Source: Rhina ancylostomus (Eukaryota). From it: a stretch of 64,000 nucleotides of DNA. Position numbers and translations under genes: made by a program. Shown here piece after piece: positions 1 to 34,309 of this stretch. Every line of letters begins with the position of its first letter. Positions within the stretch are counted from its first letter, which is position 1. The stretch covers positions 47,943,001 through 48,007,000 of the forward strand of contig JARFYF010000063.1 in the NCBI GenBank assembly GCA_030265395.1. Reading direction: 5' to 3'. Under the pieces are notes generated by a model. It saw only the letters and a list, made by a program, of their open reading frames with translations, did no database searches and had not been told where the DNA came from.

Positions 1-2819
1 CTTGTGACCCCGACCTCCACATGCCACACAGTCTAGGCACTGGAGTCTGTTTTGGAGGCTGCAGGAAGTCTTATCTCAGTGCGGATCAAGAATCCCATTT
101 GAACATTGGCCCTTTACTTAGCACGGTTTCAGAAGGTACAGGGTGAGTAAAAGTTGGCTGATCTGTGAATGATTAAGAAGCTTAAGAACCAATGAATCAT
201 AAGCTGGAGATGAATTTTTGGCTTTGCATTAGCATTGTCATCTTTTGGGGGCAGTTGTGTGCTGGATAAAATTTCCAGTGCTGAAGATAATCCTGATGGA
301 AATTCAGGGGAGTACTTTCTAATCAGGCACCAAGAAACCTGGTATTGGGAGCAATACTGCTCTGCTCTCGGTTACGGCAATTTTCAAATGCACAGCGTGA
401 TTTTTTTCCAGAGATGTGTGAAGAAATTTCTGGGCCACGGTGTTTAAGAACATCCTTCAATTATGACTTCATTCTTCTGTGCTTCACCCTCACTTAGCAA
501 AGCATGCCAACAATCCATCTCACTGGCTGCAATAACAGGCACTATATCTTGCCTTTCAGCACGTGGACCAGCCATTCCCCGGCCACTGAACATGTTGCAC
601 AGGCTTCATGCTTGCCCATCACCGACAAGATTCCAACTCTGACTCCTCTTCACCAATGAACAGCCTGGATCAGCAGTTTGCCCAACAGAATCTGAAACCT
701 GTCCTGTGATCCCTCACCCTTATTCACATATCTGCTAATTCCTGCATTCTGGGGATTCAGAGACCCTTTAGACTGTAGGTTTCAGCTGCAATGACAACAA
801 CAATGCTTGGTAATAGGGCAATGCCAAGGAATGTCTTGCTTGTTGGGTCCACTGCAGCAAATTTCAGTAGCAGCCAAAGACTGAGGTTCCAGTGCTCCTT
901 ATGGTCCTTCTTATGGTCCTTAGAGTTCTACCTCACACATTGCATGACTGAAAATCACTGGTCACAGTGGAGAGCAGGCCTAAGGTAATGAGCTGGGGGG
1001 AGTGGTGCTGTTAAAAGTCTAAATGAGGCCTGGGGTTTGAGACGAGTCCCACATACGGGCCTGGTGGGGGACTGGGGGGTGGGGAAGAAGCAACTTGGGT
1101 GGGTGGGAGTATCAGCCAAAAGTAATCATTTTGGGGCAGAATTAAGTATTGGGGACCTACCACAGTCAGGTTCTACCTGAGTCAGGTGAGCCTGCTTTAA
1201 ATCAGAAGCTCCAAAGCAGCATTTCAGAGGAATGGCTTGATTCCTTGCACAGCCAAGGCAGAAGTCACATCATCCATACAAATGAGATTCACAACTGTGT
1301 GGTTAAATCTCCAGGGTGCCATGATCTGACCCTGAAATGCTTACAATCACATTCCACCCCTGAAATAACTGCTTTTCATTCAGGTGACAGAATTTCTTGG
1401 TTCTTGTTCCTTTAAGGACTCCTATTTATAACCTTTGAGCAACACTTTACAAGTGGGACTTGAAAGGGTTTTAAACACTGGGATTTTAGTAAATATTTTC
1501 ATGCCTGAAGCTATGATTTCACTCCTTCCATTAAAGTTGATGAAATCTACATTTGATCATAATAAATCCAGTTAGGTGCTGGCAACTTACAGGCAAGAGA
1601 TAACAAGTAGACATTTAACATTGATCACAACGCAAACACATGCAAAATATCTACTCCTGGTGGTACATACCTATGCACAAGAGTTCTATTGAAGTCAACA
1701 GATTTTAAGTACTTTCAAGAATATAGGGCTTAAATACTAAGTTAAAATATAATATATTTTAGGTATAATTATGGTTTAAATATACCACTTGAAAAGAACT
1801 GAAACATGAAGAAAATGCATTATTATTGACCAAAAGTACTTGGGAATAGAATGAGGGGAATTTACTTCTTACTTCCAATATGTTTAGGGTCCTCAATGAG
1901 TGTTGGTTTCTGCACTGCCTGTAAAAGCAGACAATTATTAAACAGGCAAAACAGGAGTCAACAAGAGGTCAAAGGGAAGTGACAGAAGATAGGTCCTGGA
2001 TATGGAAATGTCTGGAATTTCTGATAATTTTAAATGAGACTCTGGGTCAAATGAAGAGTGTTCACATCTGTGTCCATTCAGTAAAAATCTGAAGCTGCAG
2101 AAGGGAACAAACCCTCATCTATCCATCAAGGGGNNNNNNNNNNNNNNNNNNNNNNNNNNNNNNNNNNNNNNNNNNNNNNNNNNNNNNNNNNNNNNNNNNN
2201 NNNNNNNNNNNNNNNNNNNNNNNNNNNNNNNNNTCAAGGGGAAATTCTAGGATAAATTGGGATAGAAGCTTGCACCATTCTTTGCAACGGTGATTTTTCC
2301 ACGTTCATTTCTCAACCCCTCAACTCCTACACTCAAGCTCCTTCCTCACCCACCACCTTCTTTAATCTCTGGCACCTTTTTTTAAGTTTACCTCTCACCA
2401 CCCCTTCCCCAATCCAGCTCCTGAGTGTTTGAAACTAGGCTTGATAGGATTCTTCCCCAATCCACCTAGAAATTCCTCAACCACTGATATTTAAATATAT
2501 ATCCTGTTTATCTTTCACAGGGAACATTTTTTTTTCATTGTGTAAGTCAAGCAGGATGTGTTACAAAAATAACTGACTACCTTACTCGTAATGCGGCTGC
2601 AATGGGACCTTGCTACAACTGAGTGTTCTCTCGTTGAAAATCAGGCACTGCTAACTTGCATGCAACTAATGTCTAGTATTCTAAACTGAGGTTGTTTGGA
2701 ATTTTTTTTACACACACATTCTATACCTTCTGCATCCTACAATTACAGATGGTGTTCAGCATGGTTTAAGTGCATAGTAAGGTTCTTTATGCTCTCCTCA
2801 ACAGAGAGGGACAAAAGCC

Positions 2820-3170
2820 TGCACTTAGCAATTTTGTTTTGCAACCTTGGGGCATCCTAAAGATCTTTATAGCTGGTGAAGAACTTTCTTTTTTGAAGTG
2901 CAATCATTGCTGTAGTGTAGGGAAATTGACAAGTAATTTGCACACAGCAGGCTGCCATAAATAGCAAAATTAAATAATTTAGATATTTTTAATGATGTCT
3001 GATGGATAAAGATTGACTTGGACACTGGGGGGAGCTTTCCTGTTCTTTGAAATGTATTATGGGATCTTTCAGCTGAAAGGGCAGATGGGACTTTACTTTA
3101 ATATGTCATTTGAAAGACAGTGCCTCAGATAGTACGACAGTCTGTCAGTATTGGGCTGGAAGCTGGGGGT
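2820..3170 (-). mobile_element. Deu-domain SINE (SacSINE1-like), degenerate
   Basis: Reverse complement matches the SINE body and L2-like tail seen at 25465-25870 (ggacactggggggagct, gggatcttt...gggcagatggg, tttgaaagacagtgcctc). Confidence 0.75.
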
Positions 3171-3559
3171 ACCTTCTACTGTTCTAGAATCATGGATGAC
3201 TGCAAATGACTTCTCTAAGATCAGCCAATAGTGCTGTAGTGTTGACTGCTTTTTGATGATGAAATGGTAGTGTTAAAAATTGCAAGCTCAAAGTATATGC
3301 TAAGGCAAGACTGTTGAAGGAATCTGGCCAGTTCTCTGCCAGCGCAGATGATTACATGATACTTATAAAATCTCTCCAGCCACTTAATAGGGTGAATATA
3401 ATCCTGAACATGAACCAATCGGGAAAACCAAGTTACTGCAGCTAAATCATTTGGAAACAAATGTCAGATGAAACTCTCAGTGTTTTGTGTAAGGCTTGTA
3501 GCACTTGTGATCGGAAGAGAGAGGGACTCAGGATGTTTTGGAGATCGCTGATTCTCCTA

Positions 3560-3790
3560 TAGTAAAAACAAAACATGCTGGACACCTCCAGCAGGTCTGG
3601 CAATATCTGTGGAAAGAGAAATGATGTTGACATTTCAAGTCAGAGACCTTTTATCAGAATCAGAAATCGATTGTGCTTTAAGCCACAGTGAGGAGGGATG
3701 GGGAGAGAGAGACAAGGGGAACATCTGTGATAGGTTGGAGACTAAGAGAGACTGAATGACAATAAAAGTGGTGGCAACATCAGGTGATAT
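3560..3790 (-). mobile_element. Penelope-like pLTR fragment with degenerate hammerhead motif
   Basis: atgctggacacctccagcaggtctggcaatatctgtggaaagagaaa...tttcaagtcagagaccttttatcagaa. The reverse complement gives CTGATAA-AAGGTCTCTGACTT-GAAA. Confidence 0.7.
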
Positions 3791-4144
3791 CAGGCATTGA
3801 TTTTCAAACACTATTTCTTGTCTCCGTCTCTTTTCTGCTGATAGAAACACCTTTTTTCTCTCCCCCCCACCACCACAATCTTCTGTAGGATAGAAATTTG
3901 CCCACAGTCACTTGCAGTGAACATGCTTCCAAAGTTCAGTTCTACTTAAGTCAATGGAATTAAACATCAAAAATTCAAAGCAACACCCATCCATGATTAT
4001 ATAGCACATGTTTTGCAAGCAAGTGAGGACAAATTTAATGTGGAACGGGTAAATCTCCTAAGTACATGGCGAGTTTATCAAAGCACACAGCACAACAATC
4101 TGTACAGATTAGACAATCCTGGAATATTACTGAAAAATAAATAT

Positions 4145-4250
4145 CAACTCTGATGAAAGGTCATTAACATGAAGTACTAATCTTGTCTCTCTCTCCACAC
4201 ATGCTGCCCGACCTGCTGGATTTTTCCAGCCCTTTCCAGTTTCATTGCAA
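4145..4250 (+). mobile_element. Penelope-like pLTR 3' fragment
   Basis: ctgatgaaaggtcatt...tctctctctccacacatgctgcccgacctgctggatttttccagc, the same family as 9050-9144. Confidence 0.7.
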
Positions 4251-7200
4251 AAGCAAAATATGGAAATGCAGATCTGAATTTGTGAAAGGCAAAGTTGGAG
4301 CTAGTGGCAGAGAATGCGATGTACAACGTGGGATTAACAGATGGAATGGATTTCCATGTGGAGTATTGAAGTTAAAACCAGCAACCCATCATTTCAGAAA
4401 CAATCAGACGTTGCAGTGGGGGTAGGGGTAAGTGGAAGGTCATTCTGGATGAATGAACTAAGAGAGGCAAAATGACCTTCCTCATCCAATTTAATCTTGC
4501 GATATGAATTTAAGGTCCCGGGGGTGACAGAATAGTGTCCCTAGGGAGACATTAACCTAAAAAAAAATGAAACCTAAAGGGTTAAAGCCCCCATCACAAT
4601 AACAGGCTGAGGAATGTCAAATGAACTCATCAAGCATTTGTTCCCTAATGTCACCAGCAGTAAAATGTAATCTTAGAGCTTCAGTACAGACACGAGCGGA
4701 ATCAGGAAACATCTGTATGAGGTCAGGGGATTCAGAAACTGACTGATCAATCATTCAAATACAATTCCTATTATATTTTAAATAAATTTTATTCCAAAGG
4801 CTATACTTCAAAAAGCTGGAAGAATTTATTTTTAGCAGGATGTTGTACAGGATTTAAAAGACTTGGGTTCTGTAGCTGAAGCAGCAAACATTCTACCGAG
4901 GAGGATCTCAGGCTGAATTTGTTGGTTTGTTTTCTCCATTCTGATCCTCCTCTAATCCTGTGACCCCTTTTTTAAAAAAAATACATGGGCTGATTTGCAC
5001 ATTGACCAGCTTCATTTTATAATCTCTCTGAGACTCACAAAGCCAGATGCCAGACCTCAACCTGTCTTTTGCTTTACCGTGTCTGACCCTGGAGAAATTT
5101 GTGATGATGCAAGTCAAACTCAACCCGGGCTCACCTCCTGCCTCCCTGCTGTTTTAGGACCAGAATGAAATCATACATCCACATAACCCAATAGCTTTCC
5201 TCCCCCTGTGCAAAATACCTTTTCTCCTGGGTGCTGGTCTCAAAAATGGGGCAGTGTAATCTGACTGAGAAGACAGATCTGACCCAGACGGTTCTTCCAG
5301 CTATCCATTTGGAAGCAATCTCTTGCATGAGACTTGGAATAAAAAAATCTTCAAAACCAGCATACTGAGTACAAATAAATGAACCTGACCAAGGCTATTC
5401 AGCATGTTCTTTTTTAATGATAGGAATTTATTATATTATAAGGAAACCTTCATCTTGTTATACAATATCAGCAAATTAAAATAGATTTTTGGATGAAGGG
5501 TGAATAAAAACAATTTCAAGACCATGCTGTTTGACGATTTAATTTTGGTCTCTCACTGCTTACTCCTCTTCTACTGCCTGACACAAAATAAAATTCAATA
5601 CTTCAAGGTCTATAATAACATATCTGAAAATCTCAACAGACTGTAGTATATAGCCCTGGGTGCATGCACATTATTATATGGAGAGATTTGTGTGGCTTCT
5701 CAAACAATTATTTTCTTAAGAGAGTGGTGTTCATCCTAGCACAATGGAAGACACATAATTTGCATGTGCTAGACATGTGAAAAGGGGCTTTTCATTGTTA
5801 GTCCCAATACCTCTGTTTCGATTTCCACTAACTGAAGGTTGGGGCAAAATCTCTGCAGGTCAGTAAGTTCATTATCAAGCCACTGGATGATTTGTGAAGT
5901 CAGATGTGTATTACTTTTGGGATCTTGCATAATACTGAAATGGTGCTGCATACACAGTGCGGGTGTTTCCCATCCACATCCAAACCCTTAACCACTCCAA
6001 GCATCCAATTGCTCATTCTAACCTCCTTATGACATACCAAAAGGCCTACTGTGAGGCTGGCAGATCAAAATGAACTTTTCCAATGGAGTAAGCAGCCAAT
6101 GAGGTGTAACAGGTGTCTGTGGCTCACTATGAATATGTACATGAGGTCTGAGAAGCAATTCATGACACACCTCAGGGCTTGGTTTGGCTGTGAGCTGCCT
6201 CAGCAGGGCTGTGTCTGATCCTAAAAGCACCCTACCTTAAAGTCAGGTGTGACCTATATTTGACATTGTTTATTATCTTTTGGGAGTCTTACACTCTGCT
6301 TGATTCTGTAGCAACAAAGCCACTATGGGGTTGTGGGCTGGGCAGGAATGGTGGGGTAGAGGCTTAGCTGGCATGAACAAATTTGCTGATGGCACTGTCC
6401 TCGATTCTGGCAAAGCGACAAGCTATAAATCTAACTGAGATATATGCTACACCATAAGTGAGGTTTAGTGGGTGGGGGTTGGGGGGGTGGTGGTTGTTAG
6501 TATTGGCTGGAGTGCAAGGCAAGGTGGGCTGTTTGCTGCCTATTTTTCTTTTTATCTATTGTATTTATGGAATGTGTTTTTCGACAATCACCATCAAGTA
6601 AAATTGATTAACATCCAAATGTGAATCCCTAGACATCTGCTCTGTCTTGTCTTTCTTAAGAAGACACATGGTTAGACCCGAGTCAGTCGGAACAAATCTC
6701 CTTCAAATGCACTATGTCAACACTTACTTTGTTAACTTTCCCAGGTAAACTCCTTGGATAAGCAAATTCATGCATTTAATTTGATTAGTCGAGGCCTATT
6801 AGCATAAAAACAAAGCTGCGAGATCTATTTTTCCAGTTCTGAAGCATACACAGCACACGTTCAAAGCATTATCTTTCTGCTCAGTGTTAATCAGATAGGC
6901 TCCATTCTAATCAACCATAAAAACTACAGTAACACTCCACAGACCCCATGATTCAAATAAAGTTTCCCTCTTGTTACCCCATTCAAAAATCCTCTTGGAT
7001 CTTGCTTGGATATAATAGGCTGACTGGCAAATCCTCTGAATCTCAGAAGACAAGCTAACTATTGGAGGGTTATTTCTACGTCTTAAAGGATCTGTGTAGT
7101 AAATTTCAAAATCCTATTAGTTTTGCTCATTTGGAACATTTGCCATTGGCTGTTAAAGAGCAAATTATGTTTTGACAAAGCTTTACAGGGATCAATAAGA

Positions 7201-8906
7201 ATCAGTTGAAATTATCTGTATTTCAGTGTAATTTGTATCTGCCAAACTGTAATGTAATAACTGGTTAGAACAATAAAGTAATGCCTTGGACAATGCTGAG
7301 ATTTCCGTTGTTCATTATAAGATCTTTTGGTGAAGTAAGGAAGATGTGGCTGCAAACACTTGTCCTGCTGATTCTGAGAGTCAATGGAACAATTAGAGGC
7401 TGCTCCTCCCTGCTATCATGACACACATGCAAGTGTAAGCAGCAGGCTGCCAAAATGAAATTGTGGTACAAGTACACTCAACTTGTCTCACATTTTCTAT
7501 TGGTTCTTTAGGGTTTTCATTTTCACACCAGCTGATGGAGTCCAAGTGGGATGGGCTGATGGGGTGTAGATCAATACATTAAGATATGGAGATTGATCAA
7601 TTCCCTCAGTGACCACATTAACAGACTCCTAAATGTGAACTCTGACCAGTGGAATGGCTTAAATTCTATTCAACCTCACCATTTTCAAAATAAGAGTAAT
7701 GCAGGTCAAAGGTCTCTGTTTCCTATTAATTAGTGTGGTTTTCCTTTGGGAGACCAACTGTACAGCTAAATAACCCTGCTTGTCAATAGCACAATCTGCA
7801 TTCATGTACAAATTTTCAGCCTGCAAGTACTTCCTCATACATGTGTCACATGCATCTTGAAAATCTGGCACTGGGAAAAAATGTTTATGCACCAAAGAGT
7901 CTGCATTACTCTATTTTAAAATTATGAAATGGAGAAACTACAGTTCATTAAATGGCTAAAGTGCAGCTTGACTAATGAAACTCTGCGATGTAGGTTCCTA
8001 ATGAACTGTGTCTGAACATTTTCCATGCACTTGCCTGCTTTATGTTTAATGACCAATGGACAGTTTCATGAATTAACTATTGCTAATCAGAAATCTGATG
8101 TGCTAGAAGCAGTCACTGCTACCCTTACAAAAATGTCATGTCAGCATCTGTACTGAACATTTACCAAACAGGTTCTTAGTCTTGATGAGAAGCTCATTTT
8201 GATGCCAATAAATGTGGAACCACAAACTTCTTTATCTCACTTATTGATTTTCTTTTTTAAGTACTCAGTAGGTGATGGGAATATTGAAACATTGGTATAT
8301 CAGTGCTGGGAATATGAAAATATTGATATATTGATCATAGGGAAAATCAATAATCTATGTTAATTCAGCATGATATGGCTACAAATCTGTTGAAGATGAA
8401 GTAATCATTGGATTTATCAAGATTGTGTCAGGAAGGTCAGGCAAATCAATCAATCCTTTTGAAAATCAACATGTAATAAGCACAATATGTGTTTCTCTGC
8501 AGCAGTCCTGCAGAGATCTGGAGTGAAAGACTAGAAGGTATATCAGCACCAAAGTGCAAGTGAAGCTTTTACCCATTGATCCACAGTACTTCTATGCTGT
8601 GCTTCTATGTGACTGACAGAAAAGTATTGTACATGTTGGTATCTGATATGTGAGCTGCAGTGTGAGGGCAGATTGTGTTGAGAGGAGTTTGCGTCTACAG
8701 GAGGAAGCTCACTAATGTGCTTGCTTCATCATTTAACTATTTGAAAGGGGCAGAAATGTACTAATGTTGGAGGTATGTAATTACCAGATTAGTCTTTGAA
8801 GTGCATACTGTGGGATAGAAAATTGCCTTAGATACCAACACAAACGGAATGGCATTGCTTTGACCATCCATTCTTACAATGAAGTCAAGCAAACTGAATA
8901 TTAGGT

Positions 8907-9144
8907 ATAAATCAACAAGAAAACTACAGATGCTGGAAACTCAAAACGAAAACAGGAAATGTTGGGAATGCTCAGCAGGTCAGGCAGCATCTGTGGAAAT
9001 TTAAACAGTTAAGATTATGGATCAGGGGCTCTTCATCAGATGTTCTATTCTGATGAATGGTCTCAGACCTGAAACATTAACTGTTTCACTTTCCACAGAT
9101 GCTGCCTGATCTGTTGAGTGTTTCCAGCATTTCCTGTTTTTATT
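8907..9144. mobile_element. Palindromic Penelope-pLTR-derived insertion with 12-bp TSD
   Basis: Left arm (to ~9040) is the reverse complement of the right arm (9050-9144). Flanked by TGAATATTAGGT (8895-8906) and TGAATATCAGGT (9145-9156). Confidence 0.85.
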
Positions 9145-10559
9145 TGAATATCAGGTGGGATGTGTCTTCACCCATTTTGCATTCTTTTTTGAGACAAATT
9201 AAAATTCATGCCCCGGCTACACAAATATCATGTTTTGATACTTTTTAAATTCTTTGTGCTGATAGCCCAAGTACAAGAGCTTTCTACAAATCACTCTACC
9301 AGATGTTCCAGAATGAAAAGCTACTACCATTTTAAAAGCTGTATGAGACCTTTAGCATTCATAAAAATATCAAGTATGAAGCTACGAGTGCAATAAGAAC
9401 AGAAAGCACATCTTCTCAGTTTAGGGAATCACAAACTCCTCCTTTCAGCAGCATAAAGATGCTGACAATTTACACAGAATCAAACTTCTTTATTTTCAAT
9501 TGCATTCCAACAGTTTTGGGCAACTACAACCAATTAGACCTAGAATAACTCACCTCAATCTTTATTTAATGACCCATTAAAACTGTTCTGCTGTACTGAC
9601 AAGCTGGATTTACAAAGTAGCTACACAAAGTTATTTGATTTGTGCCACTTCTGAAATACAGTCTCTGGGAAGATTATGGAAAAGGAACTAATAATGATAA
9701 GTACATGGTCATGAAAACAAATGCTCAGCAATAAAATCAAAGACAGACTTCAACAGATACCTGATAACTAATATTGATAATCACAATTGACGTTTCAATG
9801 ACTCCAGTCTTACTAACATTTAATTAAAGGACTCTAATTAGTTCAGCAAAACAGAAGCATTTACAAGATTATCTCTGACTTGTATATAAATGAATGTGGC
9901 ACAGATTATAGTTGGGGAGGTACTGCAGTTGTGACTAATATTCAATAATGAGCAGCATAAAAAAACAGTCTGGTGGATCGCAGTCAGTAACAGACATGCC
10001 ATCAGATGATACCTCTGTTTTACGCCAAGGTTTTGTGCCTCATCAAAGTAGCAAGTGCATGAACAGCTCCCTCCTTGCTGCTAGCATTTTTTGTTTATGT
10101 AACTGCAGTGAGAATGAAAGCCCTAAATCTATCCTTTTAACATAGTCACCCCACACATTTCCTTCCTACTGTCTATATCTGAGCTACATCACAGACTTCT
10201 GGTCTCCTGCCTGCAAGTCTAACCTCAGCTCTTTGAAGACCCTGGGTGACAGGGTGGAACAGAGTAGAGGATGACCTGCTCAGTAAAGCAGATGGAGGAG
10301 TGGTGGATTCTTAACAACAGCAGTGATATAAGGATCTCTTGGCCGTCACTTTGACAAGCTAACAAACACTACCCCAACAAAAAGGTTCATTTGATGCTCC
10401 CTTCTCAGTGTAGTTGGAGAAACGTTTGGTCTTACAATGAATAGTACTGTGAGGGTCATCAATCGGTACCCAATGAAAGAAAATCCATACAGCCTACTGT
10501 ACATCTTCTGCACTGCCTGTGTCAAGCACAAAGAGCAAACCATTTTGTGGTGTTCAATT

Positions 10560-11045
10560 GATTTGTTTTTTTTTTGTTTTTTTTCCTGTGGAGAGGCATC
10601 CATCATCAATAGATTTCCGCTTGCAAGACAGAATTTCCGGTGCCTAAACTACTGCTGGAAGTATGATCAAAAACATTGTCAAAATGCATTCATTCCCTCC
10701 ACCACTGGCAATACCATAGCTGCAGTGTGCATCATCTACAAAATGCACTATAACTATTTAATCAGGAAGCACCTCCCAAAAACCCCAGGACCTCTGTTAC
10801 CATGACGAGCAAGGACAGCAGGTGCATGGGAACATCCCTTTCAGGTCAACTGCCATCCCGATTTGGAAATTCATCTCTGAGTCTAACTCCTGTAACTCTC
10901 TACTCACCATACTGGGAGTAGAGTCACTGGAAGGCCTGCAACAGTTCAAAGGGGTGGCTTACCACCACCCTCTCAAAAGCGGTTAGGGATTGGTAATAAA
11001 TCTTGGCCTTGCAATCAACGCACATATCCCAATAACGAACTTAAA
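10560..11045 (+). mobile_element. CR1-clade LINE 3' end (HER1-like)
   Basis: gcagtgtgcatcatctacaaaatgcac...gcaggtgcatgggaacatc...ttagggattggtaataaatcttggccttgc...cacatatcccaa. The tail is shared with the SINE at 31870-32125. Confidence 0.7.
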
Positions 11046-11059
11046 GAAAGGAGGATGAG

Positions 11060-11325
11060 TGAACTGAAAATGGTTGGAAAGGTGGTGAGCATGTTTCCTT
11101 TGCTTTTGAAGGTGATCAGAGAAACCATTTTGAGTGCTTGGCCAGGATTTTGTAGTCAGGGGAGAAGTGATGACTCTTTCCACTAACATTGAAGAAAGCT
11201 GCCAAAAAGGATCTCCTGATCTCTGTGGTATTGGCTTCCCCTTCCCTGATGTCTCTGCTGCCAGGTCCAAATGGATCACCGGCATTCAGCAACACTGATG
11301 TCATCAACTGGGCTGAGCAGCACAC
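11060..11325 (-). mobile_element. Degenerate L1/Tx1-type reverse transcriptase fragment
   Basis: Minus ORF contains DYKILAK, characteristic of the L1/Tx1 RT N-terminal region. The rest is decayed and abuts a gap. Confidence 0.45.
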
Positions 11326-11830
11326 NNNNNNNNNNNNNNNNNNNNNNNNNNNNNNNNNNNNNNNNNNNNNNNNNNNNNNNNNNNNNNNNNNNNNNNNNNN
11401 NNNNNNNNNNNNNNNNNNNNNNNNNNNNNNNNNNNNNNNNNNNNNNNNNNNNNNNNNNNNNNNNNNNNNNNNNNNNNNNNNNNNNNNNNNNNNNNNNNNN
11501 NNNNNNNNNNNNNNNNNNNNNNNNNNNNTTAAGCATTTTATAGTGAATGAAGTTTGGAGAATATACACATTGTACTAAGGCAAGAGACTATATATCCTAA
11601 GCAGCTTTTTAAAATAAAAAGGAAATATTTCAAAATCATCAATAGCTTCAATAGTTCTTCATAAGTAACATTTTAAGTTTTATTTTCACCTCAAGTTAAC
11701 TGGTGAAAAAAAACTTGATTTTCTCCCAAATTTATACTGCCATTGCCATCACTGGAGTTGCCATCTAATCTTGATTCTGACTATGACAGTAATTTGGCTC
11801 AGGTATGGATTAATTAGATGGTATTTGTGT

Positions 11831-12100
11831 AAGGGTCACCAATCCTTCACAATTGCTCTGGAGTCATCAGAAATTCAAGATTAATCTCCTGGACACTGCT
11901 GCAGTCAAAACCTGGGAAGAAAGTCACTGGGGTGTTGAAACAAAATCAATGTTTTTGTCTGTTTCTTTGAACAGGTTACTTATTAGTAGTGAAAAGAATT
12001 TAGAAATTTAAAAAGGCTCTTTTGGGTGGGGCAGTTGGGAGTGGAGGGAGGCAAGTCATCTGATAAAAAATCCAGGTTCATATTCAATCACTGTTGATAA
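11831..12100 (+). mobile_element. Possible hAT-like non-autonomous DNA element end
   Basis: aagggtcaccaatccttcacaattgctctggagtc...gattaatctcctggacactgctgc resembles AGGGTTGCCAAC-type termini. The other end was not identified. Confidence 0.35.
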
Positions 12101-12120
12101 TTTTAGATTGAGGTAGTTTT

Positions 12121-12490
12121 TTCTCAAGCATATATTTTACTGATAATTTGTACAGGACATGCCTTTCTCTACCATCATTTTACCATCAATTCAAAACATT
12201 CTCCTGCAATACCTCATGTTTGCTTCTTAAACAATGCATTCATGAAGCATTTGAGAAGCTGTTCCTGCAGCCCCCTCCCTCCCAGTTCAGTGGCAACAGA
12301 ACCCTCTGTCCTACCCTACAGATCCTTTGTGGTGGCTTCACTGAGCTTCAGTGCATCCTTCGGCATGTACTTCTGCACCTTCGAACGTGCCAATTAGCAG
12401 CACTTATTGGCGGACATAAACTTACGCTGCAAGACCAAAGCACAAATTTCACCAAGTTGATGATCTCCCAGCAGCAGTTTGCCGCAGTAT
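12121..12490 (-). mobile_element. Tx1/L1-clade LINE 3' end (ORF2 C-terminus plus 3' UTR)
   Basis: Minus strand encodes NCCWEIINLVKFVLWS, then after a frameshift LVLQRKFMSANKCC*LARSKVQKYMPKDALKLSEATTKDL*GRT, a decayed Tx1-like C-terminus. The AT-rich tail ends in A's at 12121. Confidence 0.75.
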
Positions 12491-12812
12491 TCCTTCCTCT
12501 TCTTTGCTCTTCTACCCACCACCTCTCAGCTTATTACATCTTCTCCCCCTCCCCCACCCACTACCTTCCCCCTCTCACCTGGACTNNNNNNNNNNNNNNN
12601 NNNNNNNNNNNNNNNNNNNNNNNNNNNNNNNNNNNNNNNNNNNNNNNNNNNNNCTGGCTTCTGCCCTCTTCCTTTCCAGTCCTGATGACGAGTCCCGGCC
12701 CGAAATGTCGACTGTTTATTTCCCTCCATAGGTGCTGCCTGACCTGCTGGGTTCCTCCAGCACTTCTTGCGTATTGCTCCAGATTCCAGCATCTGCAGAA
12801 TTTCTTGCGTCT
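12490..12812 (+). mobile_element. Penelope-like pLTR with intact hammerhead core
   Basis: Pyrimidine-rich pLTR body, then cagtcCTGATGAcgagtcccggcccGAAAtgtcgactg...gctgcctgacctgctg...gattccagcatctgcag. Confidence 0.85.
12677..12714 (+). ncRNA. Minimal type I hammerhead ribozyme motif (predicted)
   Basis: Stem I CAGTC(12677-81)/GACTG(12710-14), core CTGATGA(12682-88), stem-loop II (12689-701, one mismatch), GAAA(12702-05), vestigial stem III and GTC cleavage triplet (12707-09). Activity untested. Confidence 0.7.
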
Positions 12813-15469
12813 CGTGTGTTGATTGAGGTAGTTTTACTACTTGTGACACTCACACAGACATCTCAGTTCTGCTCAGTGGCGGATCCCTCTTTCATTATCC
12901 AGCAAAGCACCTTTTGGTAACATGCATTGCTGGAATTCAAAGTGCTGATTTGTGGCCAGCTCAGGAGTAACAATGTTCAGCACCTGGTACACAAAATAAT
13001 GTTATTGCCTTACAGCACGTGACGTTCCACTTGCTGATCACGCTAAAGAATCCCTTCCGTTAGTCCATTTGTCTCTGGGAGTTCAGGAGAGACAAATCAC
13101 CAGTGATGTCACTGGCTGAGACCAATAAGGATCAATGGCAACTTTTTATTTTAAATTTGCCACTGCCCAAGGACCTTCCTTGCCCTTGCCAACTTTAAAC
13201 TCACTGTTGCTTGTTCATGGAAACGTATTGCAAGTCAAAATTCTTCATCTTCATGTACCAAGCTAATACTCCAACTTGCTTTATGTAACCCTCCAACCTT
13301 TCCTATCCATATTTAGCAATGACCTATCCAACAGAAATGAACAGAAAGTATGTACTTCCTTATAAACCACCAAGAAAATGTGAACTGTGTATTACAGAGA
13401 CATTGATCTGGGGAGAAATCTGGAGACCCACTCAGCCTCTGTCCCAAGATTTACAGCAATGAAGCCGGGAAACAATAATGAAGCAGTAAAGCTTTATGTT
13501 AGTCTGATATTGATCTTGTCATTTAATTATATGGTACTTATATAATGTTATACCATAACACGCACTGCAAAAACAAAGTCAGCATTGCCAAACAACATCA
13601 GTGTTGCATGAGTAAACTGATTCAGCCTAAGGTGAAGAGGAAATGCTTCCAAGCTTTTGTTTTTTTTATTAAAAGTGTTTGATAACTATTTTGTGAAACT
13701 AGATTAAAGGCAATGTATAAACAGGAACCATTATTGATGTCAAAATTATCAGCTGTCAAACTAACATATACGTTCAAAATAGTTTTCTTGGAGTTTCGGA
13801 TGGACTTTGAGATTATTAACAAAGATTTTGAGGAAATTAGAAATTTAGGAATGTTTATTTGCATTAAGATGGACTGTTGGAATCCAATGGTTGAATTTAT
13901 AGTTAAACAGGGGAGCATACTTTTTTTGTTGCAAATCTAATGGTTGGATGGTTTTATTATAAAAAAACTTATTTTTTCAGTGCCTCATGAAAGAGTATAG
14001 ATGGCCAAAAAACAAAAGCAATTGAAGCTTTGGATATAATTGTTAATCTGGATTTCTGAATTTGACTTCAATTCTTGGTATCAAGTGTATTCAATCTGTA
14101 ACTTCAGGAAAACTTGTATAAAATTGAGGCAATGGGTAGAGTATTGTACATAAATTATAGAAAATATGAAGCAGTGATCTAATTAAAAGGTTCAGGGATC
14201 ACGAAAAAGTACAAAACCATGGATTAAATAGATTATAGATTAAATTTGAAGTCGGACCACTTGTGTGATAGATGCCAACTAAACACTCAGAAAAAGTGTG
14301 GATTTGTCTATTCATGTGTAAATAAGTTTTAATTGATAATTAGACTAAATTCTTCAAAACAACCTCCTTGTTACTAATATTTTACTTTCATCAGTGATAA
14401 CGTTGCATTGCTTTGAATTTTAATTTGAGTTTTCTAAAAGATCTTTTAAAAATTGCTTTTCCGTTCGAATTCTTCATCTCTTTTTAATGCTTCTTTGCTC
14501 TTTAGACATGATTTGGATTTGAATTAGCTATTTTAATTTACACTTGCTTGACCTTGTGTGCCTCATTGAGGGCTTTTCAACATGATTGCTTACGAAAGCA
14601 GATCCTGTCCACATACTGTAGGTCCAGATCTCCTATGGAGGCCGACACAATACCTGGTTCTCCAATTACCACAACTTCGGGCTAAGTGCAAATAAAGAGG
14701 TTGTGAGCAAGCATGAATCTAATGAATCACTTGCATCCTTTGCCACTAAATGCAAAATCTAGGCTAATATTTTCAACTTGGATCTGTCTAAAACAATGTT
14801 TAATTAATCATCCAATAAGTTAATAGCCTGGATCTTCTATCTGGGCACCAGCAGTTCTGTCAGACTGACCTACATTTCTTCACAGTTGTCCTAAAGTTCA
14901 GCACTAGCATTGGTTTAAGCTTGTAGTGGCATCTTCTTCAATGCTGCCTGTTATGCAGGGACAGTCAGCTACATGTTGCTGAATGCTTCTATGATGTTCA
15001 ATAGGACAGTGCAGATTTCCCAGGTCTCAGGCTGGGAATTCTGCTGCTCTCCCTGTGCCAGATTAAACATGGTACAAGTTGAAATCAAGGGAACAAAATA
15101 GCTGGCTGGCTGGCAAGGGTAAGAAACTCTTTTTTTCAATTTAATTTTTTATTTCTTTAAGAGTTTAATTTTTCTTAATTACAATAATCTTTTTTTTATT
15201 TGTTAATAGTTTCCATTTGATTTGAAGGTTTGTGAATATCAAAAATATGAAACATTCAATTTAAGTGATAGCTTTGACAGCTAATGAGCTTGGGGCTGGG
15301 TCAGGCAGGAAGCCAGCTATCCTGGGGTCAGGGGAACATCTGCCCCAATATTATTTCATTGCACTTTCACTTGCACTACACTTGCTTGTACTCGCCACAT
15401 CTGTCTTGCTGGAAGATCAAAAAAAGAATGCCTGTTCTGAAATGACTGCTCATGTGGTGAAAGAAATAA

Positions 15470-15635
15470 CATCAGAAAATGCTGGAAACTTTCAACAGAT
15501 CAGGGAGCTTTAGTGGCAAGAGGAATAGAGCTGATACTTCAGGTTGGTGTCTTTTCATCAGAGGCAGAACGACAGATCATTAACTTGAAATGCTAACTCT
15601 ATTTCTTTTCACTGCCAGTCATGTTGAATATTTCA
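15470..15635. mobile_element. Degenerate palindromic Penelope-pLTR-derived element
   Basis: cagaaaatgctggaaac...ttcaggttggtgtcttttcatcaga, then agatcattaacttgaaatgctaactctatttc...gttgaatatttcaaca in inverted orientation. Confidence 0.6.
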
Positions 15636-16750
15636 ACAACAATGTGTATTTATAAAGCAGATTTAACATGGTAAAATATTCCGAGGGATTTTGAAGGAAA
15701 TAAAACTCCTATGTGTGAAGATATTAGGCCAGATGACAAAAGCATGGCCATGGAGATCATGTTAAAATAGAACGGAGAGGTAAAGAGACTAAGGTTATGG
15801 GAGAGACAATTTCTGAACTTTGGGCTTTAGCAGCTGAAGGCAAAGCCACCAACAGTGGAGCGATTAAATGTGGAGATGCTCAAAAAGCACAAATACAAGG
15901 AGCTCCAGACAGTTGGAGGACTTGAAGAGATTCGGGATTTAGGGGGAAGCAAGTCCATCAAGAGATTTTAAACCAAAATGAGGATTTTTAAAAATCAAGG
16001 TGTCATTTAGTCGAGGTTCAATGTCGGTAAGTGATCACAGGGGTGATGACTGAATAGGAAATGGAGCTGCTAAGGATAAGAGCGTGAAACAGGAACACAT
16101 TGGAATAGTCGAGAGCCTTAAGTAACAAAGGAGTGGATGGGGGTTTCAGCAATAGATGGACTAAAGAAAGGGAACAAAGGTAATGTGACGAGGAAGAAAT
16201 AGGCATTCTGGGCAACGGTGTTGATAGGTAGTCCAAAATTTACCCAGGGGACAAATATTGGTTCAGTTTCAGAACATTCCCAGAAGGGGAATAATATCAT
16301 TGGCCAGGGAACAGATTTTTGTGATTGGGAAATCAAAGCCAAAGCTCTTGGTCTTCCCAGTCTTTATTTTGGGAAATTTCTGTTCATCCACCACTTAATA
16401 TCAGATGAACAATCTAAAGAGGTAGAGATGAGTATCTACATGGAAACTAAGCTGATATTCCTTAGACGTAGCATATGGATGAGGCCTGGGGTGCCAGGAT
16501 AGATCCTTGGCAAATGCCAGAGATAACATTATGGGAGTGGATAGAGAAGTGATTGCGGGTGATTCTTCGGTAACACCTGGATAAAAAGGTTAATGCAGTC
16601 CCACCTAGCCGCGCAACTGGAGAAGAATGGTGTGTGAAACATGTCAAAGGTTTCAGATAGTTCAAAAAGGACAAGGAGGGATTCACAATGGATCTCATCA
16701 GTGACTGGTAAGAGCCATTAAAGTGAAGGAGCAAAAACCTGATTGAAGGA
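15635..16750 (-). mobile_element. L2-clade LINE, decayed 3' portion
   Basis: Starts with the reverse-complemented L2 tail (aacaacaatgtgtatttataaagc...), followed by purine-rich antisense ORF2 sequence. The minus strand includes GICQGSILAP, a decayed GVPQGS RT motif. Confidence 0.65.
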
Positions 16751-16769
16751 ATTAATTGATGTTAAAGGG

Positions 16770-17570
16770 AATCTGAAACAAAAGCAGAAAACGGTGGAAG
16801 TGCTCAGCAGGTCAACAGCATCAGTGGCGAGAGAAACTTTGAGTCAAGCACCTCAACAGAACTGNNNNNNNNNNNNNNNNNNNNNNNNNNNNNNNNCAAG
16901 CATGTTCTAAGTTGCAGGGGGTGGGGGTGGAGAAAGAGTGGAAATAGATATCAGTCAAAGACTGCAGGCAAAAGTTGTCAAGATAACAATTACAAGCTGT
17001 CCCTGGGTCATGGACGCCCGACTGATGGACAATCCTACGTATGAACGAGCTCCCATAATATAATTAAATTCAAGAGTCCAATGTACATAGCTAGTTTCCT
17101 CTCTCTTCCCACTTTTAGTAATTATTCTTTCTTAGCAGCTTTGCTTTCGATGCCATTCATTACAATACTGTGGAGATGTGTTTATCAGGTCAAGTCACTT
17201 TTGTGCATTTTTTGACTAATGGACAAAATCGACTGATGGACGTCTGTAAAAACAGAATTCGTTTGTTACCTGGGGATGGTCTGTGCTTTAAAAACTGGCA
17301 GTTTGAGACAGAAAGGAAAAATGAAGCAAACTGAAACAGAAAGGTACAGCCATATCAGTAAAGACTGTGTAAAAAAAAGGGATTCATCTGAAATTGTTAA
17401 AATCAATATTAAATCCCAATGCCGATAGCATGCCCAGAAAGAAGATGAGTTGATGTTGAGCTTATGCTGGGCATCTTTTCAGCAATATAGAAGGTTGATG
17501 AACAAGAAGTCAGAGTGGGAGTAGGACAGAGAATTAAAATGATCGGAGACTGGAAGTTCAGGGCCACCCT
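16770..17570 (-). mobile_element. Penelope-like element 3' part (GIY-YIG C-terminus plus pLTR), interrupted by a MITE
   Basis: Minus strand 17560-17385 reads LPVSDHFNS...LIFFLGMLSALGFNIDFNNFR*, the typical Penelope ORF end. pLTR terminus at 16770-16865. Confidence 0.75.
16993..17283. mobile_element. Tigger/pogo-type (Tc1/mariner) MITE
   Basis: Imperfect TIRs: ta-caagctgtccctgggtcatggacg vs the reverse complement of the right end, ca-cagaccatccccaggtaacaaacg (differences mostly transitions). Subterminal cgactgatggac occurs twice. TA at the left end. Confidence 0.65.
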
Positions 17571-20500
17571 TGTATGCTCTAAGAGTTATCGAAAAGATAG
17601 GGTCAAATTTGGAAGCCTGATTTTACTTCAGACTTCCTGCATCTATAGTATTTTAGAAAATAACAGGCACATGGTGTTGACAATAATTGTGCTCTCTTTT
17701 TTGACAGGTTACTAGTTTGCTTGTTACCACATTATTTATGAATGAACAGTCATCCAAAACTCCCAGCCCCCACCTCACCCTGCCACCCATTCTCCCAAAC
17801 AAGCAGATACAATTACAGCCAGGATCCGAAATAGCAGCCACGAAACAGCAGCTCCNNNNNNNNNNGTCAGACTTAGAGAGGAATGTGAAAGGTTGAAGAG
17901 CTCAGCAAAATTTTTAAATGCAGGATGAGGCCAAAGCAAAACTCACACGCCATCGCCGATTGTGGACGGCAGATCATCTATCAGTGGACAAATGCAGGAA
18001 CTTTGGAATGCAAGTTCTCAAATGAAATAATATATCTTTTAAAAGCCAATGCCCATTTCAGGCCCAAAGCCCATACATCAAGCCACAGGCGCTTGTGGAT
18101 ACACTTTAGAGTCATTAACCTTACACCTGTCTACTCTTGTCCTTCACCATGATCCCCTGCCCTTGATTTTATTTTCACTCCCTGTTCATCTTCCTACTCT
18201 GTAATATAAAACAGAGGNNNNNNNNNNNNNNNNNNNNNNNNNNNNNGCAGGGACATAGTTACAAATCTCTGCCACGAGCACAGTGACGGTGAAAGGCAGT
18301 TTGTCAGTTCTGCACCAGGTGACCTTTGTGACACAGACATGAGGTGAAAATATCGTCAGTGAGTAAAACAACGGACCGCTGGGACTCCGATTAAATAATT
18401 AACTCCTTTGTAGAAATGGCTGCAGAGCAGATGTCATTAATATATACATTTTTTAAAAAGCAGGAACCAATGTCAAGTTTGAGCCAACTAATTTTCACAT
18501 ACATAGGCAAACTAGAAAAAGATACACAAGGCAATTTTAACCCTTTCAGTGTCCCATGTGCCAAATATATTCCTAAAGATTGAATTGTTGCCTTTGGGCA
18601 GCAGCTGAAGGACTCCCATTGTCTCTTGACCTGTCTGAGAGAATAGCATCAATTCGGGGCTGCTCATTAACTGACTGTATTGTTTATGCAGACCACGGAT
18701 GTTGTTGCAAGGCACTCTTGCAGCATTGGACAAAACTTCTCCCCTCCTCAGTAGTAAATACCTGGCATGCATTTTGCATCATTTTTCTCAGTGCCAGCAT
18801 ATGCCTTGGGATTCACATTGGCATCAGCAGGTGCCTAGGCCCTCTGTCTGCTATTTTCACAGGGAACCTGTCACGAGCAGGGAAGCCTTGTACACTGAGC
18901 TGTGAACCTGATTGATTAAATGGAAGTCTGAGATGCTCCAATAATCTCCCATAAGCATCACCACCCTCTCTGCTTAAAGTGTGCCTATTATTCCGTAAGG
19001 TAATTCATTTAGAGCCGGTTTAATTAATTTCCAGAGCTTAAAAATACAAACACAACTAACTTCAATTATTCAAAGCATATGAAGCAATCCTCTCTTAGAT
19101 GAAAATTTGAAAGCATTCATATAGCACCTTTCACATTCGTTTCTGGACTTCCAAAGTATATTACAGGAAATACTGAATGAGTTAATGGCATTCCTGTTTC
19201 AAACACTTAAATATAACCCAACAGCAGAAAACAGATGTAATACACACACTGTCCTTGCCAGCTACTCAGTTATAAGGCCATTAGTTAACAACCTTGGAGT
19301 AGATTTTCCTATTCCTGCTCTTGGTTGCATTTGGCTTCCTGAGATGGAATCGAAGAAAATCTGAATGCATTCTCATAATGGATTCTTCACAATGTTCCAC
19401 CCATTTAAACTAATGGATGGAAAGGGGTGGTCTGCGTTAAGGGTGCACTCACCCCTGTTGAGTTTCCATCACAAGCAACTCACAAGGAAAATCTGCCCCA
19501 ATGTCTACCAGATTAGGTACTTGGAAATAAATGAACAACACCCTCTCCAACCTACCCCAGCAAAATGTCCTAACTTTAGAAAGACAGCTAAACTGCATCA
19601 ATTTAACTAATATATCCAATTCCCACATCTACTCTCATATGGGCGTCTCTGAGTGAGAGTGCACAGTTAGAGATTAGGGAGAGCAAAGGATACTGATGCT
19701 CCCTAGAAATTAGACAAGGACTAACCATACTCATTTCACATTGTGTCCTTCATGACAGCAGTCAATAAGAGTCTAAACTGGTTTGAAATCCTAGTCCAAA
19801 AATTAAAGCTGCTGCACCACCCTTTGATTCAGCCCTTTGAATGTAGACATTTACCTTAGTGTAATAATGCCCCTGCTAAGCCAGTAAGCAAAGGAATGAC
19901 ATATGAAAAAAATAAACATTTCACAAACAATATCTCCAGCAGAAATTATCTGAACATCCTACTTGCTGTCATAGATTGCTACAAAACTTATAAATATTTT
20001 TTCAGATAACATGTTTTCATATATAATAGACAAACTAGACTCATCCTTTACACTCTTAATACTATNNNNNNNNNNNNNNNNNNNNNNNNNNNNNNNNNNN
20101 NNNNNNNNNNNNNNNNNNNNNNNNNNNNNNNNNNNNNNNNNNNNNNNNNNNNNNNNNNNNNNNNNATATGTTATGATATATTATGTATATCTGCTGCAAA
20201 GAATAATAGCTAGAAATTGGATTTCACCCATTTTTGGTGTCTGAATGACCATTACATTTTGCTCTGTTGCCAAATCGGGTTTCACCAAAAGTAATAGTAA
20301 AAGTGGGATAAACTTGCTTTTCAAAATTGTTTTTGTTCTTTCCTCCCTTTAAGAAAGGTTTAAACCCAATCATGGCAATTCAGTAGGCAGCTGCTGTGTT
20401 ATTCAGGGTGCCATGGAGAAACGGGGACAGGGTGATTGTGGCAAACTGTGGGGGGGATAATGGAAAACGGGGCTGTAACTGCGTGTGGGTGAAGACCCAA

Positions 20501-21559
20501 TGACAAAAGGTGCTCTGTGCTGTGTGTGGCCCCAGGTCCTGATGGTATCGGTGCCACAGACCAAGGCACCTGAGACCTGAAGATATCAGAGCATGGAGGA
20601 TTTGATCTGTGCTCAGCATGGCCGGTGGTGAGATTTATAAAGTATTAAAGTGATTGAGGGAGATTTATAAAATGTAAAAATGACATCCTAGTAGGGAACC
20701 TTTCAAATGGTGCATTATTCCCTACTTTCAGCATGATGCACTCTTTGTTGAGAGTTAATAACATAGGTTGTGACTTTTTGATCCAATTTCTGTTGGTAAG
20801 TAAATAATGGGTGATGCACACATTGATGACATCATCATGAGCGAATCCCAGTGGGAAATGACACCTGCATTAGGATGAATCATGACAGGAAGTTCCTGAT
20901 CCAGTTTCCTGATGGGGGATGTCTCAATATGAAATGGTTTCAAGCACCTCACAACATATACAAAATACACTTGCTGGGAGATTTACACATAAAACATATA
21001 AAAGCAGGTCTAATTTCCAGGCATACAGGACCACATGCAGATAATTCCTCTGGTATCAAACATAAAGTGAAAAGAATTTGTGACTCGGCAACAGCTGTAG
21101 AAAATTGTGCCCTGTCACAATATTCAATAGTACAGACTTAAAACTATGAAATTATCAAAACTTTCTCCTCAGATAATGTCCTTCACAACAGGAAAGATCA
21201 CAGAGAAATTTACTGAACAGTGTCACATGCTGCACTAAGGATTTTGGATTATTAGTTATTACTCAGATTGTGCAGGTATGGAGAATTCGTCAAACCTCAA
21301 GAACATTAAAAAGTCACGTCTAAATCAGTAAACAATAAGAAGTGATAGTTATCATTCATAATCAGTCTGTGGGAATTCTGATCCAAGTAGAAAGTTGCAT
21401 TCACCTATAGTGCACAGATGAAGCATCTCAAAATTGAAAAAGATCAAAGCTTACCACATCTAGCACTAACTTTTCTGAAAGGCAATAAAACTCTGATAAT
21501 CCACTGTCCAATTGTTTGGAATTGTCAATCATTTAGCATCTAGCTCATCAGGTGATATT

Positions 21560-21810
21560 TCCCCTGCTCCCTTTAAAATCATGGGGATGCCATTCCAGGG
21601 CCCCTTCTTGTGCTTCCTTGAAGTTCACTGAGGTCCTGTTTCCCATGGTTCCTTGAAACTCATAGGGCCCTATTTCCCACACTCCCTTTAAATTCACTTG
21701 GGTACTGTTTCCCATAGTCTATTTAAATTCATTGGTGCCCCATTTTGTGTGCTCCCTTTAGACTCATCAGTGCCCCATGCCCTAGACTCCCTTGAAATTT
21801 ATAGGGTTCA
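21560..21810. repeat. Degenerate ~33-bp minisatellite
   Basis: About 7 diverged units like ctcccttgaaattcatagggccctgtttcccatg. Confidence 0.7.
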
Positions 21811-25287: not shown

Positions 25288-25462
25288 CTCAAAAAATGCT
25301 GGAAATAATCAGCAGGTCAAGCAGCATCTGTAGAAAAGTTACCAAGTTAATATTTCAGGTCAATGATCTTTCATCAGTTCAGATTATTGACCTGAAATGT
25401 GAAATCTGTTTCTTTCCCTCCCGATGTATTTTGAATTTCCAGCAGATTTTTGCTTTCAGATT
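25288..25462. mobile_element. Palindromic Penelope-pLTR-derived element
   Basis: aaaatgctggaaataatcagcaggtcaagcagcatctg...tttcaggtcaatgatctttcatcagttc joined to agattattgacctgaaatg...ctgtttct...tttccagcagattttt in inverted orientation. Confidence 0.75.
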
Positions 25463-26499: not shown

Positions 26500-26605
26500 A
26501 CAATGGAGACTCAAGAGACTGCAGATGGAATATGGAGCAACACACAAGATGCTGGAGGAACTCAATGTGTCAGGCAGCATCTCAGGAGGGAAATGAACAG
26601 TTGAG
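26500..26605 (-). mobile_element. Penelope-like pLTR terminal fragment
   Basis: gagactgcagatgg...cacaagatgctggaggaactcaatgtgtcaggcagcatctcaggagggaaatgaacag. Confidence 0.7.
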
Positions 26606-33599: not shown

Positions 33600-34090
33600 C
33601 ATACTCTAATACCCACACTCACCTCACACCAACATCAGCTTCGCAGCCATCAGTTATTCAACTCCACTGATTTAGCTTCATTGCAGGTCTCCCGGCACTG
33701 CAACTCCAGCATCTCTCCCCTAATGGATCCCATTATCACCTTCCCTACTTTTCAGATTCCAGCACTGGTAGCCTTGTGTTCCCACTTATCACCCTCCTGG
33801 CTGTCTTTGTCTTCACCTCCACCCATCTGGCTCTGCCTGCCTTTTCTTTGCCTGTCTCCACCTATTATCCATCTGCCTCTGTCTCCCAACTCCACCCCTC
33901 CCCCTCCCAGTCCAGCTTCATCAGCCCAACATCCTTCACCACTCCTCCGTCCACCAATCACCTACTGGCCCGTCTCACCACTTCCCCTCTCCTCTTCATA
34001 CTGTCATCTTGAAATATCGACAATTCCTCTCCCCCTACCCCACACAGATGCTGCTTGACTGCTGAGTTGGTCCAGCAAATTGTTTGTTAT
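33600..34090 (+). mobile_element. Penelope-like pLTR fragment (hammerhead core deleted)
   Basis: Pyrimidine-rich body ending cttgaaatatcgacaattcc...ccacacagatgctgcttgactgctgagttggtccagca. Confidence 0.65.
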
Positions 34091-34309
34091 ACTAATTTAT
34101 GTTAATATTACTTGCTTTCAGCCCACCTAATTGGTTGAATTAAGTTGATGTACACACACACTGCTAATCAACACTGATGCTATTGCCAGTAAACAAGCAA
34201 TTCGTCCCCACTCCCGACCAACAAGTGGGTAAAAGGGAGTAGCTGACTGGAAAGATATAAAAAATGTAAAGTAAGAAGCTAATAGCTGTGTTTCAGTGTA
34301 GACTTTTCT

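Follow-up and report, generated by a model that had tools for sequence, protein, structure and literature searches.

The motif at 12677-12714 of the 64-kb stretch of Rhina ancylostomus DNA analysed here (the window) is very probably an inherited minimal hammerhead in a 5'-truncated pLTR fragment of a Penelope-like element (PLE), likely of the Neptune clade; this copy is probably inactive and under neutral decay. As a single copy it is a decayed repeat of an ordinary kind. Its family adds a cartilaginous fish, with high copy numbers, to the hosts of pLTR minimal hammerheads.

The hammerhead motif, its host fragment and related ends in the window

On re-reading, the sequence and coordinates that a first-pass annotation had given for the motif were right. 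The 5' strand of helix I lies at 12677-81, the CTGATGA box at 12682-88, an extra C at 12689 and helix II at 12690-701; in the 3' half, GAAA spans 12703-06, C17 is nucleotide 12709 and the 3' strand of helix I occupies 12710-14. The unpaired base that separates position 9 from position 10.1 is C in this copy and A in all subfamily majorities. The fragment that hosts the motif is interrupted by an assembly gap at 12586-12653. A profile search of the 64-kb window recovered 15 family fragments, namely the eight places already listed in that annotation (related sequence is present at all seven named in addition to 12677) and seven more:

12489-12813, plus strand: 5'-truncated 3' end (pLTR fragment) assigned to a Penelope-like retrotransposon, subfamily A1; blastn starts pile up at 12489 and ends at 12813, with truncation within the 3' UTR
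12489-12676, plus strand: pyrimidine-rich 3' UTR/pLTR before the hammerhead, partly N; aligns with the region from the GIY-YIG stop codon to the hammerhead in other loci
12677-12714, plus strand: motif of the minimal type I hammerhead, with an intact core, GUC at 12707-12709, an additional C following A9, a helix II interrupted by an A.C mismatch and a palindrome reduced to AUGU; fails the strict descriptor defined below
12715-12813, plus strand: about 100 nt 3' of the hammerhead, including the optional tail of 30-40 nt; continues into the ORF N-terminus in 5' pLTRs
3549-3666, minus strand: subfamily B end with A in place of G8; faces the 4144 copy head-to-head across about 480 nt
4144-4251, plus strand: subfamily B end that begins at the core (boundary -1), GAAA changed
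8921-9148, both strands: two subfamily B ends in fold-back arrangement (minus at 9041, plus at 9045) across 7-8 nt; counted from C3, both start at -1/-2; the minus arm is absent from the earlier list
15463-15652, both strands: fold-back pair of subfamily B ends, absent from the earlier list
16767-16864, minus strand: decayed subfamily B end adjoining a gap, absent from the earlier list
25283-25452, both strands: two subfamily B ends that fold back on each other; on the minus arm the core survives and helices I and II do not
26516-26604, minus strand: A-type end starting near the cleavage site (boundary +26), a rare kind
34008-34095, plus strand: decayed subfamily D end
38650-39365, inverted pair (38714-38751 minus, 39242-39279 plus): subfamily C ends with upstream pLTR sequence, G12 changed to A in both
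60759-60888, minus strand: subfamily B end, A13 changed to G

A weak MIR1888 match at 8993-9096, far below threshold, corresponds to the fold-back hairpin of the subfamily B pair.

The repeat derives from a Penelope-like element with RT and GIY-YIG

The identity of the repeat comes from loci elsewhere in the genome. The most informative, L097, is a decayed 2.9-kb copy that runs from RT motifs through a CX4CX2C linker, a GIY-YIG domain and a pyrimidine-rich 3' UTR to the hammerhead and tail, and its 3' end is 87.6% identical to window positions 12654-12790. Two cysteines lie between the GIY and YIG equivalents, as they do in homologues. The top database relative of L097 is a bamboo shark protein with an RVT_1 domain (62%), and full-length homologues combine RVT_1 with a GIY-YIG match below the curated cut-off. 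An 889-aa RVT_1 protein with such a sub-threshold GIY-YIG match can be followed colinearly, in the strand of the motif, through both L097 and L085; for L097, colinearity with a full-length homologue extends from residue 163 to 887. At L117 the hammerhead flanks RT sequence on both sides, 2.3 kb apart. The link to Penelope RT/GIY-YIG ORFs, on whose absence the first-pass annotation would have abandoned its reading, is thus found at L097, L085 and L117 and again at loci identified by the ORF N-terminus. Among 29 loci of the latter kind, 12 have a same-strand repeat end directly upstream, eight of these 12 keep most of the motif, and the sequence that follows the repeat end matches homologue residues 2-89. 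Since the hammerhead lies 3' of the GIY-YIG stop codon and 3' UTR and also 5' of the ORF N-terminus, it is present in both pLTRs. Some 20 nt separate the cleavage site from the first candidate ATG, and the start seen in homologues lies beyond it. That an ATG directly behind the motif is in frame found no confirmation: its spacing to the homologous start is a multiple of three in one of five decayed loci.

Across loci we see the features of EN+ Penelope-like elements: pLTRs at both ends, an inverted 5'-truncated copy and a 30-40 bp tail. Pieced together from decayed loci in a gappy assembly, this architecture supports placing the 12677 repeat in a pLTR whose Penelope-like element encodes RT and GIY-YIG domains. 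None of the 20 loci fetched holds an intact ORF or a full-length element, and Pfam and PDB sequence searches with the decayed frames returned nothing relevant. Long open frames from the protein search were rejected as runs of N.

The element probably belongs to the Neptune clade. The CX2-5CxxC type of linker points to Neptune or Nematis, and Neptune is favoured because it is one of the two PLE clades, with Poseidon, reported in vertebrates in the accessible part of a 2026 preprint (bioRxiv 10.64898/2026.07.22.740005); Nematis is thereby excluded only weakly. As far as the available text of Craig et al. 2021 (PMC8557442) goes, Neptune EN+ elements likewise have a single ORF with RT, a CX2-5CxxC linker and, at the C terminus, a GIY-YIG domain with CCHH, and likewise carry pLTRs, an inverted 5'-truncated copy and a 30-40 bp tail; unlike the elements described there, the Rhina family is known from decayed copies alone.

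Abundance, subfamilies and decay

Copy number was estimated from an even sample of 100 evenly spaced 10-kb tiles on large scaffolds; these tiles together with 264 kb make up the census. The even sample held 193 matches in 869 kb of called bases, or 222 fragments per Mb, with 0 in the reversed control, and the whole census held 240 family matches in 1.264 Mb, again with 0 for reversed sequence. For a genome of 2.2 Gb, 222 per Mb extrapolates to about 4 x 10^5 fragments, the basis being the large scaffolds sampled. Exact A-type cores numbered 231 genome-wide, and the reversed pattern 0. A strict descriptor (helix I of at least 3 pairs, helix II of at least 4 pairs, both core boxes and NUH) was passed by 3 of 203 fragments in 1.064 Mb, all of them family members, and by 0 in each of 10 dinucleotide shuffles; taken as 3 in 0.95 Mb, this extrapolates to a few thousand passing copies (roughly 1,200-18,000) genome-wide. 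Within the window no copy passes; a minimal-hammerhead descriptor was among the checks suggested by the first-pass annotation, and none of its eight listed copies survives it. Its statement that CTGANGA and GAAA are largely retained is overstated for these copies, given that both are kept in only three of the eight (12677, 9050 and 25345).

Clustering by tail sequence alone of 349 copies (182 from the even sample and 167 from search loci, two remaining unassigned) gave subfamilies A1, which includes the 12677 copy, A2, A3, B, C and D, with tail divergences from about 0.10 to 0.20. The motif had been proposed for at least two subfamilies; by this clustering it occurs in at least five. CUGANGA, GAAA and NUH are kept in the majorities of A1, A3, B and C, and two subfamilies show core changes of their own, U4A in A2 (65% of 26 copies) and A9C in D (76% of 25). 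A2 and D together account for about 70 of 224 sampled copies. Mutations at most hammerhead core positions reduce activity strongly (PMC3088659); U4A and A9C do not appear in the accessible part of that work.

Mismatch frequencies in core and tail are similar in A1 (0.058 and 0.053), A2 (0.080 and 0.104), C (0.040 and 0.055) and D (0.120 and 0.143; all p > 0.25), so there is little sign of selection after insertion in these four. The core of subfamily B is slightly better preserved than its tail (0.144 vs 0.172, p 0.04). The tail of the 12677 copy diverges by about 10%, typical of A1, and this copy is likely decaying neutrally.

Assembly errors can mimic tandem repeats in this genome: window positions 31700-31863 and C7:74622928-74623131 carry identical sequence flanking gaps of 100 N and are assembly duplicates. 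An apparent 170-nt tandem of two unmutated cores on C7 was rejected on this ground, the second core being a repeat of the first on the far side of a gap of 100 N.

Agreement of the family majority with the minimal type I hammerhead consensus

The family majority carries every element of the minimal type I hammerhead consensus as given in the accessible part of Cervera and de la Pena 2014 (PMC4209133), and a helix II of at least four uninterrupted pairs is present in the majority and in the 231 exact genomic copies. Where A, C and D have C-G at pair 2.1-1.1, B has U-A (49 of 69 copies), and their G-C at pair 10.1-11.1 is matched in B by A-U (41 of 90) or G.U (29 of 90); the latter change cannot be put down to CpG decay because the dinucleotide at 11.1-12 is TG in 83 copies and CA in 9. 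One-sided changes preserve pair 10.4 in A1 and pair 10.5 in D, the free position 7 is changed in C, and H17 is C or U in every subfamily. Helix I pairs 4-5 are broken in C and D, and pair 5 is broken in B. At positions 15.2-16.2 a CG is to be reconstructed for all subfamilies since TG and CA decay products are equally frequent, which would fit the AACGTT-like palindrome proposed for stem III; in the 12677 copy it has decayed to AUGU.

Covariation in both stems had been claimed as well. The stem I alternation (CAGTC/GACTG and CAGTT/AACTG) is real between subfamilies, and the stem II alternation (GGGTC/GACCC and AGGTC/GACCT) also exists between subfamilies, but AGGTC/GACCT occurs in none of the listed copies and only in the subfamily B majority. 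All told there are two compensatory double changes, both on the single branch that separates B from A, C and D. We compared covariation with shuffles in 73 copies, including 12677, that have an ungapped motif and at least 68% identity to their own subfamily. Measures based on cell counts were equalled in only 1-2 of 500 shuffles, whereas measures based on pair type were equalled in 222 and 230 of 500 and do not exceed the shuffled level. Significant covariation in the family, which the first-pass annotation had made a test of its reading, thus shows with the first kind of measure and not with the second.

These limits are what a chance resemblance inside a repeat, with no ribozyme ancestry, would have in its favour: two compensatory events on one branch, pair-type measures that do not beat shuffles, no hammerhead match in Rfam and changed cores in A2 and D. 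We nevertheless regard it as hardly credible, since the majority sequence satisfies the whole published consensus in the expected pLTR position and strand, and the descriptor finds nothing in shuffled sequence.

The 12677 copy is likely inactive at its locus

The annotation had described the 12677 copy as retaining the full core and a GUC site. Core and GUC are indeed present and helix I has five pairs, but helix II is broken, and the picture of a well-kept ribozyme is not supported. Helix II reads GAGTC/GGCCC, and an A.C mismatch at 10.2-11.2 leaves it short of four uninterrupted pairs; its calculated free energy on its own is 0.0 kcal/mol (unfolded), compared with -3.7 in an unmutated copy. 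When the copy is modelled as a 38-nt monomer, three of four helix II pairs, closed by helix I, still reach probabilities of 0.6-0.7, and residual activity in a dimer is therefore conceivable. Helix III is affected as well: positions 15.2-16.2 are UG, the palindrome has changed from ACGU to AUGU, and the model duplex, at +1.2 kcal/mol vs -3.1 for ACGU, is predicted to be unstable. A scan of the window against Rfam at E values up to 10 matched no hammerhead family.

The copy is solitary, the closest same-strand family fragments lie about 3.6 kb upstream and 2.9 kb downstream and are both decayed, and the tandem head-to-tail units, each with a complete hammerhead, that characterize non-LTR retrozymes are absent. 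From the folding models and this setting, the 12677 copy is likely inactive where it stands. That it instead still works as a ribozyme, perhaps one co-opted to cleave a host transcript, is very improbable; the intact core with its GUC and five-pair helix I would suit such a function, but the mismatched helix II, the decayed palindrome and the lack of a nearby intact same-strand partner would not, and a tail divergence typical of the subfamily argues against co-option. Moreover, none of the 56 frames of at least 85 aa could be recognised as host coding sequence, at a length cut-off that short exons escape.

Internally deleted relatives provide a different arrangement. At L135, L137, L144, L145, L148 and L022 we observe short non-autonomous units in which a pair of hammerheads on one strand, spaced 350-790 nt, encloses the ORF N-terminus and in some cases part of the 3' UTR; at L145 and L137 the second unit again begins at or near helix I. 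Such units would be the likeliest natural dimer substrates.

Truncated copies begin mostly at helix I and seldom at the cleavage site

We examined where copies begin using 224 of the 240 census copies, those with a clean boundary and a score of at least 50; 143 of them combine a non-pyrimidine flank with a start in the interval -10 to +60, counted from C3. Eighty of these 143 truncated copies start at -10 to +4, the 5' strand of helix I, whereas only 7 start at +25 to +33, the cleavage site. Expressed as a stop rate per nucleotide, the value is 0.050 at -12 to +4 and 0.004 at the cut site. The rate upstream of the peak stays high (0.015 per nt in A, C and D and 0.041 in B), so that the peak rises only about three-fold over the upstream side. 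Simulated boundaries fell into the peak bin in 14% of cases when uniform and in 1% for full-length copies, and the peak is therefore not created by the aligner. Short old copies are harder to detect and fewer late starts are consequently counted, which leaves the excess over the upstream side unexplained.

Several features near the peak suggest a transcription start. All subfamilies have an AT-rich island some 28-31 nt ahead of the A in a CAG that is conserved within the pyrimidine tract (in the window at 39202-39246 and 38746-38791); as a TATA box the island fits well in C and poorly in A1, and a branch point would fit equally well. By comparison with the TATA and initiator consensus, we read the island and the CAG as a putative TATA box and an initiator-like context. 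A TATA box with an Inr-like site has been described in a rotifer pLTR in the accessible part of one report (PMC3846280). We tentatively favour an RNA start at helix I as the cause of the boundary peak, at somewhat less than even confidence. Because copies start just before the motif and rarely at the cut site, the template RNA appears to have been uncut, and on our reading uncut RNA served as template for most inserts, which ended at helix I. The fuller account, in which the template is an uncut RNA whose 5' end is set at helix I by a TATA/Inr promoter and cleavage is dispensable for spreading, is more doubtful than the RNA start taken by itself; dispensability would fit the amplification of A2 (U4A) and D (A9C) with changed cores.

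The equally good fit of a branch point raises the question of splicing. The pyrimidine tract and CAG before helix I could be the 3' splice site of a pLTR intron, with the peak as its reflection, much as the Drosophila virilis Penelope intron, described in PMC2377424, ends at helix I in the accessible part of PMC4209133. In keeping with this, a pyrimidine tract that ends in CAG is found in every subfamily despite differences in the strand with which it would pair, and the boundaries of subfamily B favour -2/-1, directly after AG, over -5 to -3 (17 vs 6). We nonetheless consider it unlikely. Splicing leaves no free 5' end, the flanks of copies that start at the peak share no common exon on inspection, and a genome-wide search for the spliced-joint pattern with the best donor (at the ORF stop codon, the sole donor tried) gave three matches, none joined to endonuclease sequence. 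Among 15 of 58 joints in contigs of presumed RNA runs there was no joint for the predicted intron, and around the 5' pLTR these contigs gave nothing that could be interpreted; contigs cannot show starts, and this result is uninformative either way.

The peak could also arise from the structure of the RNA or cDNA, if reverse transcriptase, having copied both strands of helix I, dissociates or folds back. Head-to-head pairs within 1.5 kb outnumber tail-to-tail pairs by 64 to 18, as a fold-back process would produce, 25 of the 81 copies at the peak are accompanied by an inverted arm no more than 60 nt away, and at L244 the inversion joint falls exactly within helix I; self-priming at palindromic joints has been proposed earlier, as far as the available part of PMC3846280 shows. 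On the other hand, helix I is only 3-5 bp long, with 3 bp common to all subfamilies, 56 of the 81 peak copies have no close inverted arm, and a stall at the helix should, we presume, occur on its 3' side, where the stop rate is lowest. We rate this mechanism as somewhat less probable than an RNA start and more probable than splicing. The 36 close fold-back pairs in 1.26 Mb could yield hairpin RNA.

Comparison with known systems and a proposed cycle

Published work on other PLEs already describes pLTR-borne minimal hammerheads, truncated copies standing alone, pairs in inverted orientation, and tails. In the accessible part of PMC4209133, PLE minimal hammerheads share with the Rhina family the CUGANGAH box, G10.1-C11.1, a helix II of 4-5 bp, GAAA, a palindromic 15.2-16.2 (in Rhina a reconstructed CG), NUH and a short helix I; they likewise lie in pLTRs, occur mostly as solitary truncated copies with several consensus families per genome, and form opposite-strand pairs 100-700 nt apart. 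The Rhina family differs in its helix II loop of 2-4 nt, and also in subfamily-wide U4A and A9C changes and an A10.1-U11.1 pair, these last three not being seen in that part. Cartilaginous fish are absent from the vertebrate rows consulted in the same paper's alignment, and the available part of its supplement gives 0 matches for shark, Callorhinchus and Leucoraja.

A second comparison is with Poseidon PAc of Anolis carolinensis (Frangieh et al. 2024, PMC11167929), which belongs to another clade; in the text available, its hammerhead likewise sits at the pLTR-ORF junction and reverse transcription likewise begins in the tail, but its start codon lies inside helix II, and no 5' truncation peak at helix I is described there. 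Nor did a limited survey of open papers bring up any account of such a peak. Finally, non-LTR retrozymes are, in the accessible part of Li, Clavereau and Pollet 2026 (bioRxiv 10.64898/2026.07.22.740005), non-autonomous pLTR derivatives with type I hammerheads, and hammerhead retrozymes are reported there from one chondrichthyan genome. The internally deleted Rhina units resemble these in having two same-strand hammerheads at the spacing given above, whereas the copies in the window are solitary or inverted and do not form tandem arrays.

Taken with these precedents, the data suggest the following cycle. The motif of the source element would fold as a type I hammerhead, and its ACGU palindrome would need a second copy, or the element's protein, to complete helix III, after which the RNA could be cut behind the NUH triplet. 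Available portions of two reports agree with such a requirement: a single minimal hammerhead gave no cleavage and dimers cleaved weakly (PMC4209133), and the Anolis motif cleaves only with the element's protein, while mutants still insert and uncut RNA is the main substrate (PMC11167929). Reverse transcription would start about 65-100 nt downstream in the tail, consistent with initiation in the tail of the Anolis element (PMC11167929, as far as accessible), and would usually copy across the uncut site. Copying would mostly stop at the 5' strand of helix I, where the template RNA may begin at a TATA/Inr-like promoter, and a restart may often follow and generate head-to-head pairs. After insertion, CpG decay and point changes would break most copies, that at 12677 included.

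The boundary footprint bears on the role of the hammerhead in Penelope transposition. If the peak marks the RNA start and the missing peak at the cut site reflects uncut templates, the Rhina copies would lend in vivo support to an in vitro result obtained with one lizard element. Several hundred thousand pLTR fragments would then record the Penelope cycle in vivo, with the ribozyme as the first structure of the transcript.

Other repeats occur in the window. The segment at 51057-51217 belongs to a different interspersed repeat and is 92% identical to stretches in L097 and L099; a 75-nt direct repeat (42629-42703 and 44866-44940) shows 81% identity between copies 2.2 kb apart; and a small degenerate tandem region lies at 21544-21735.
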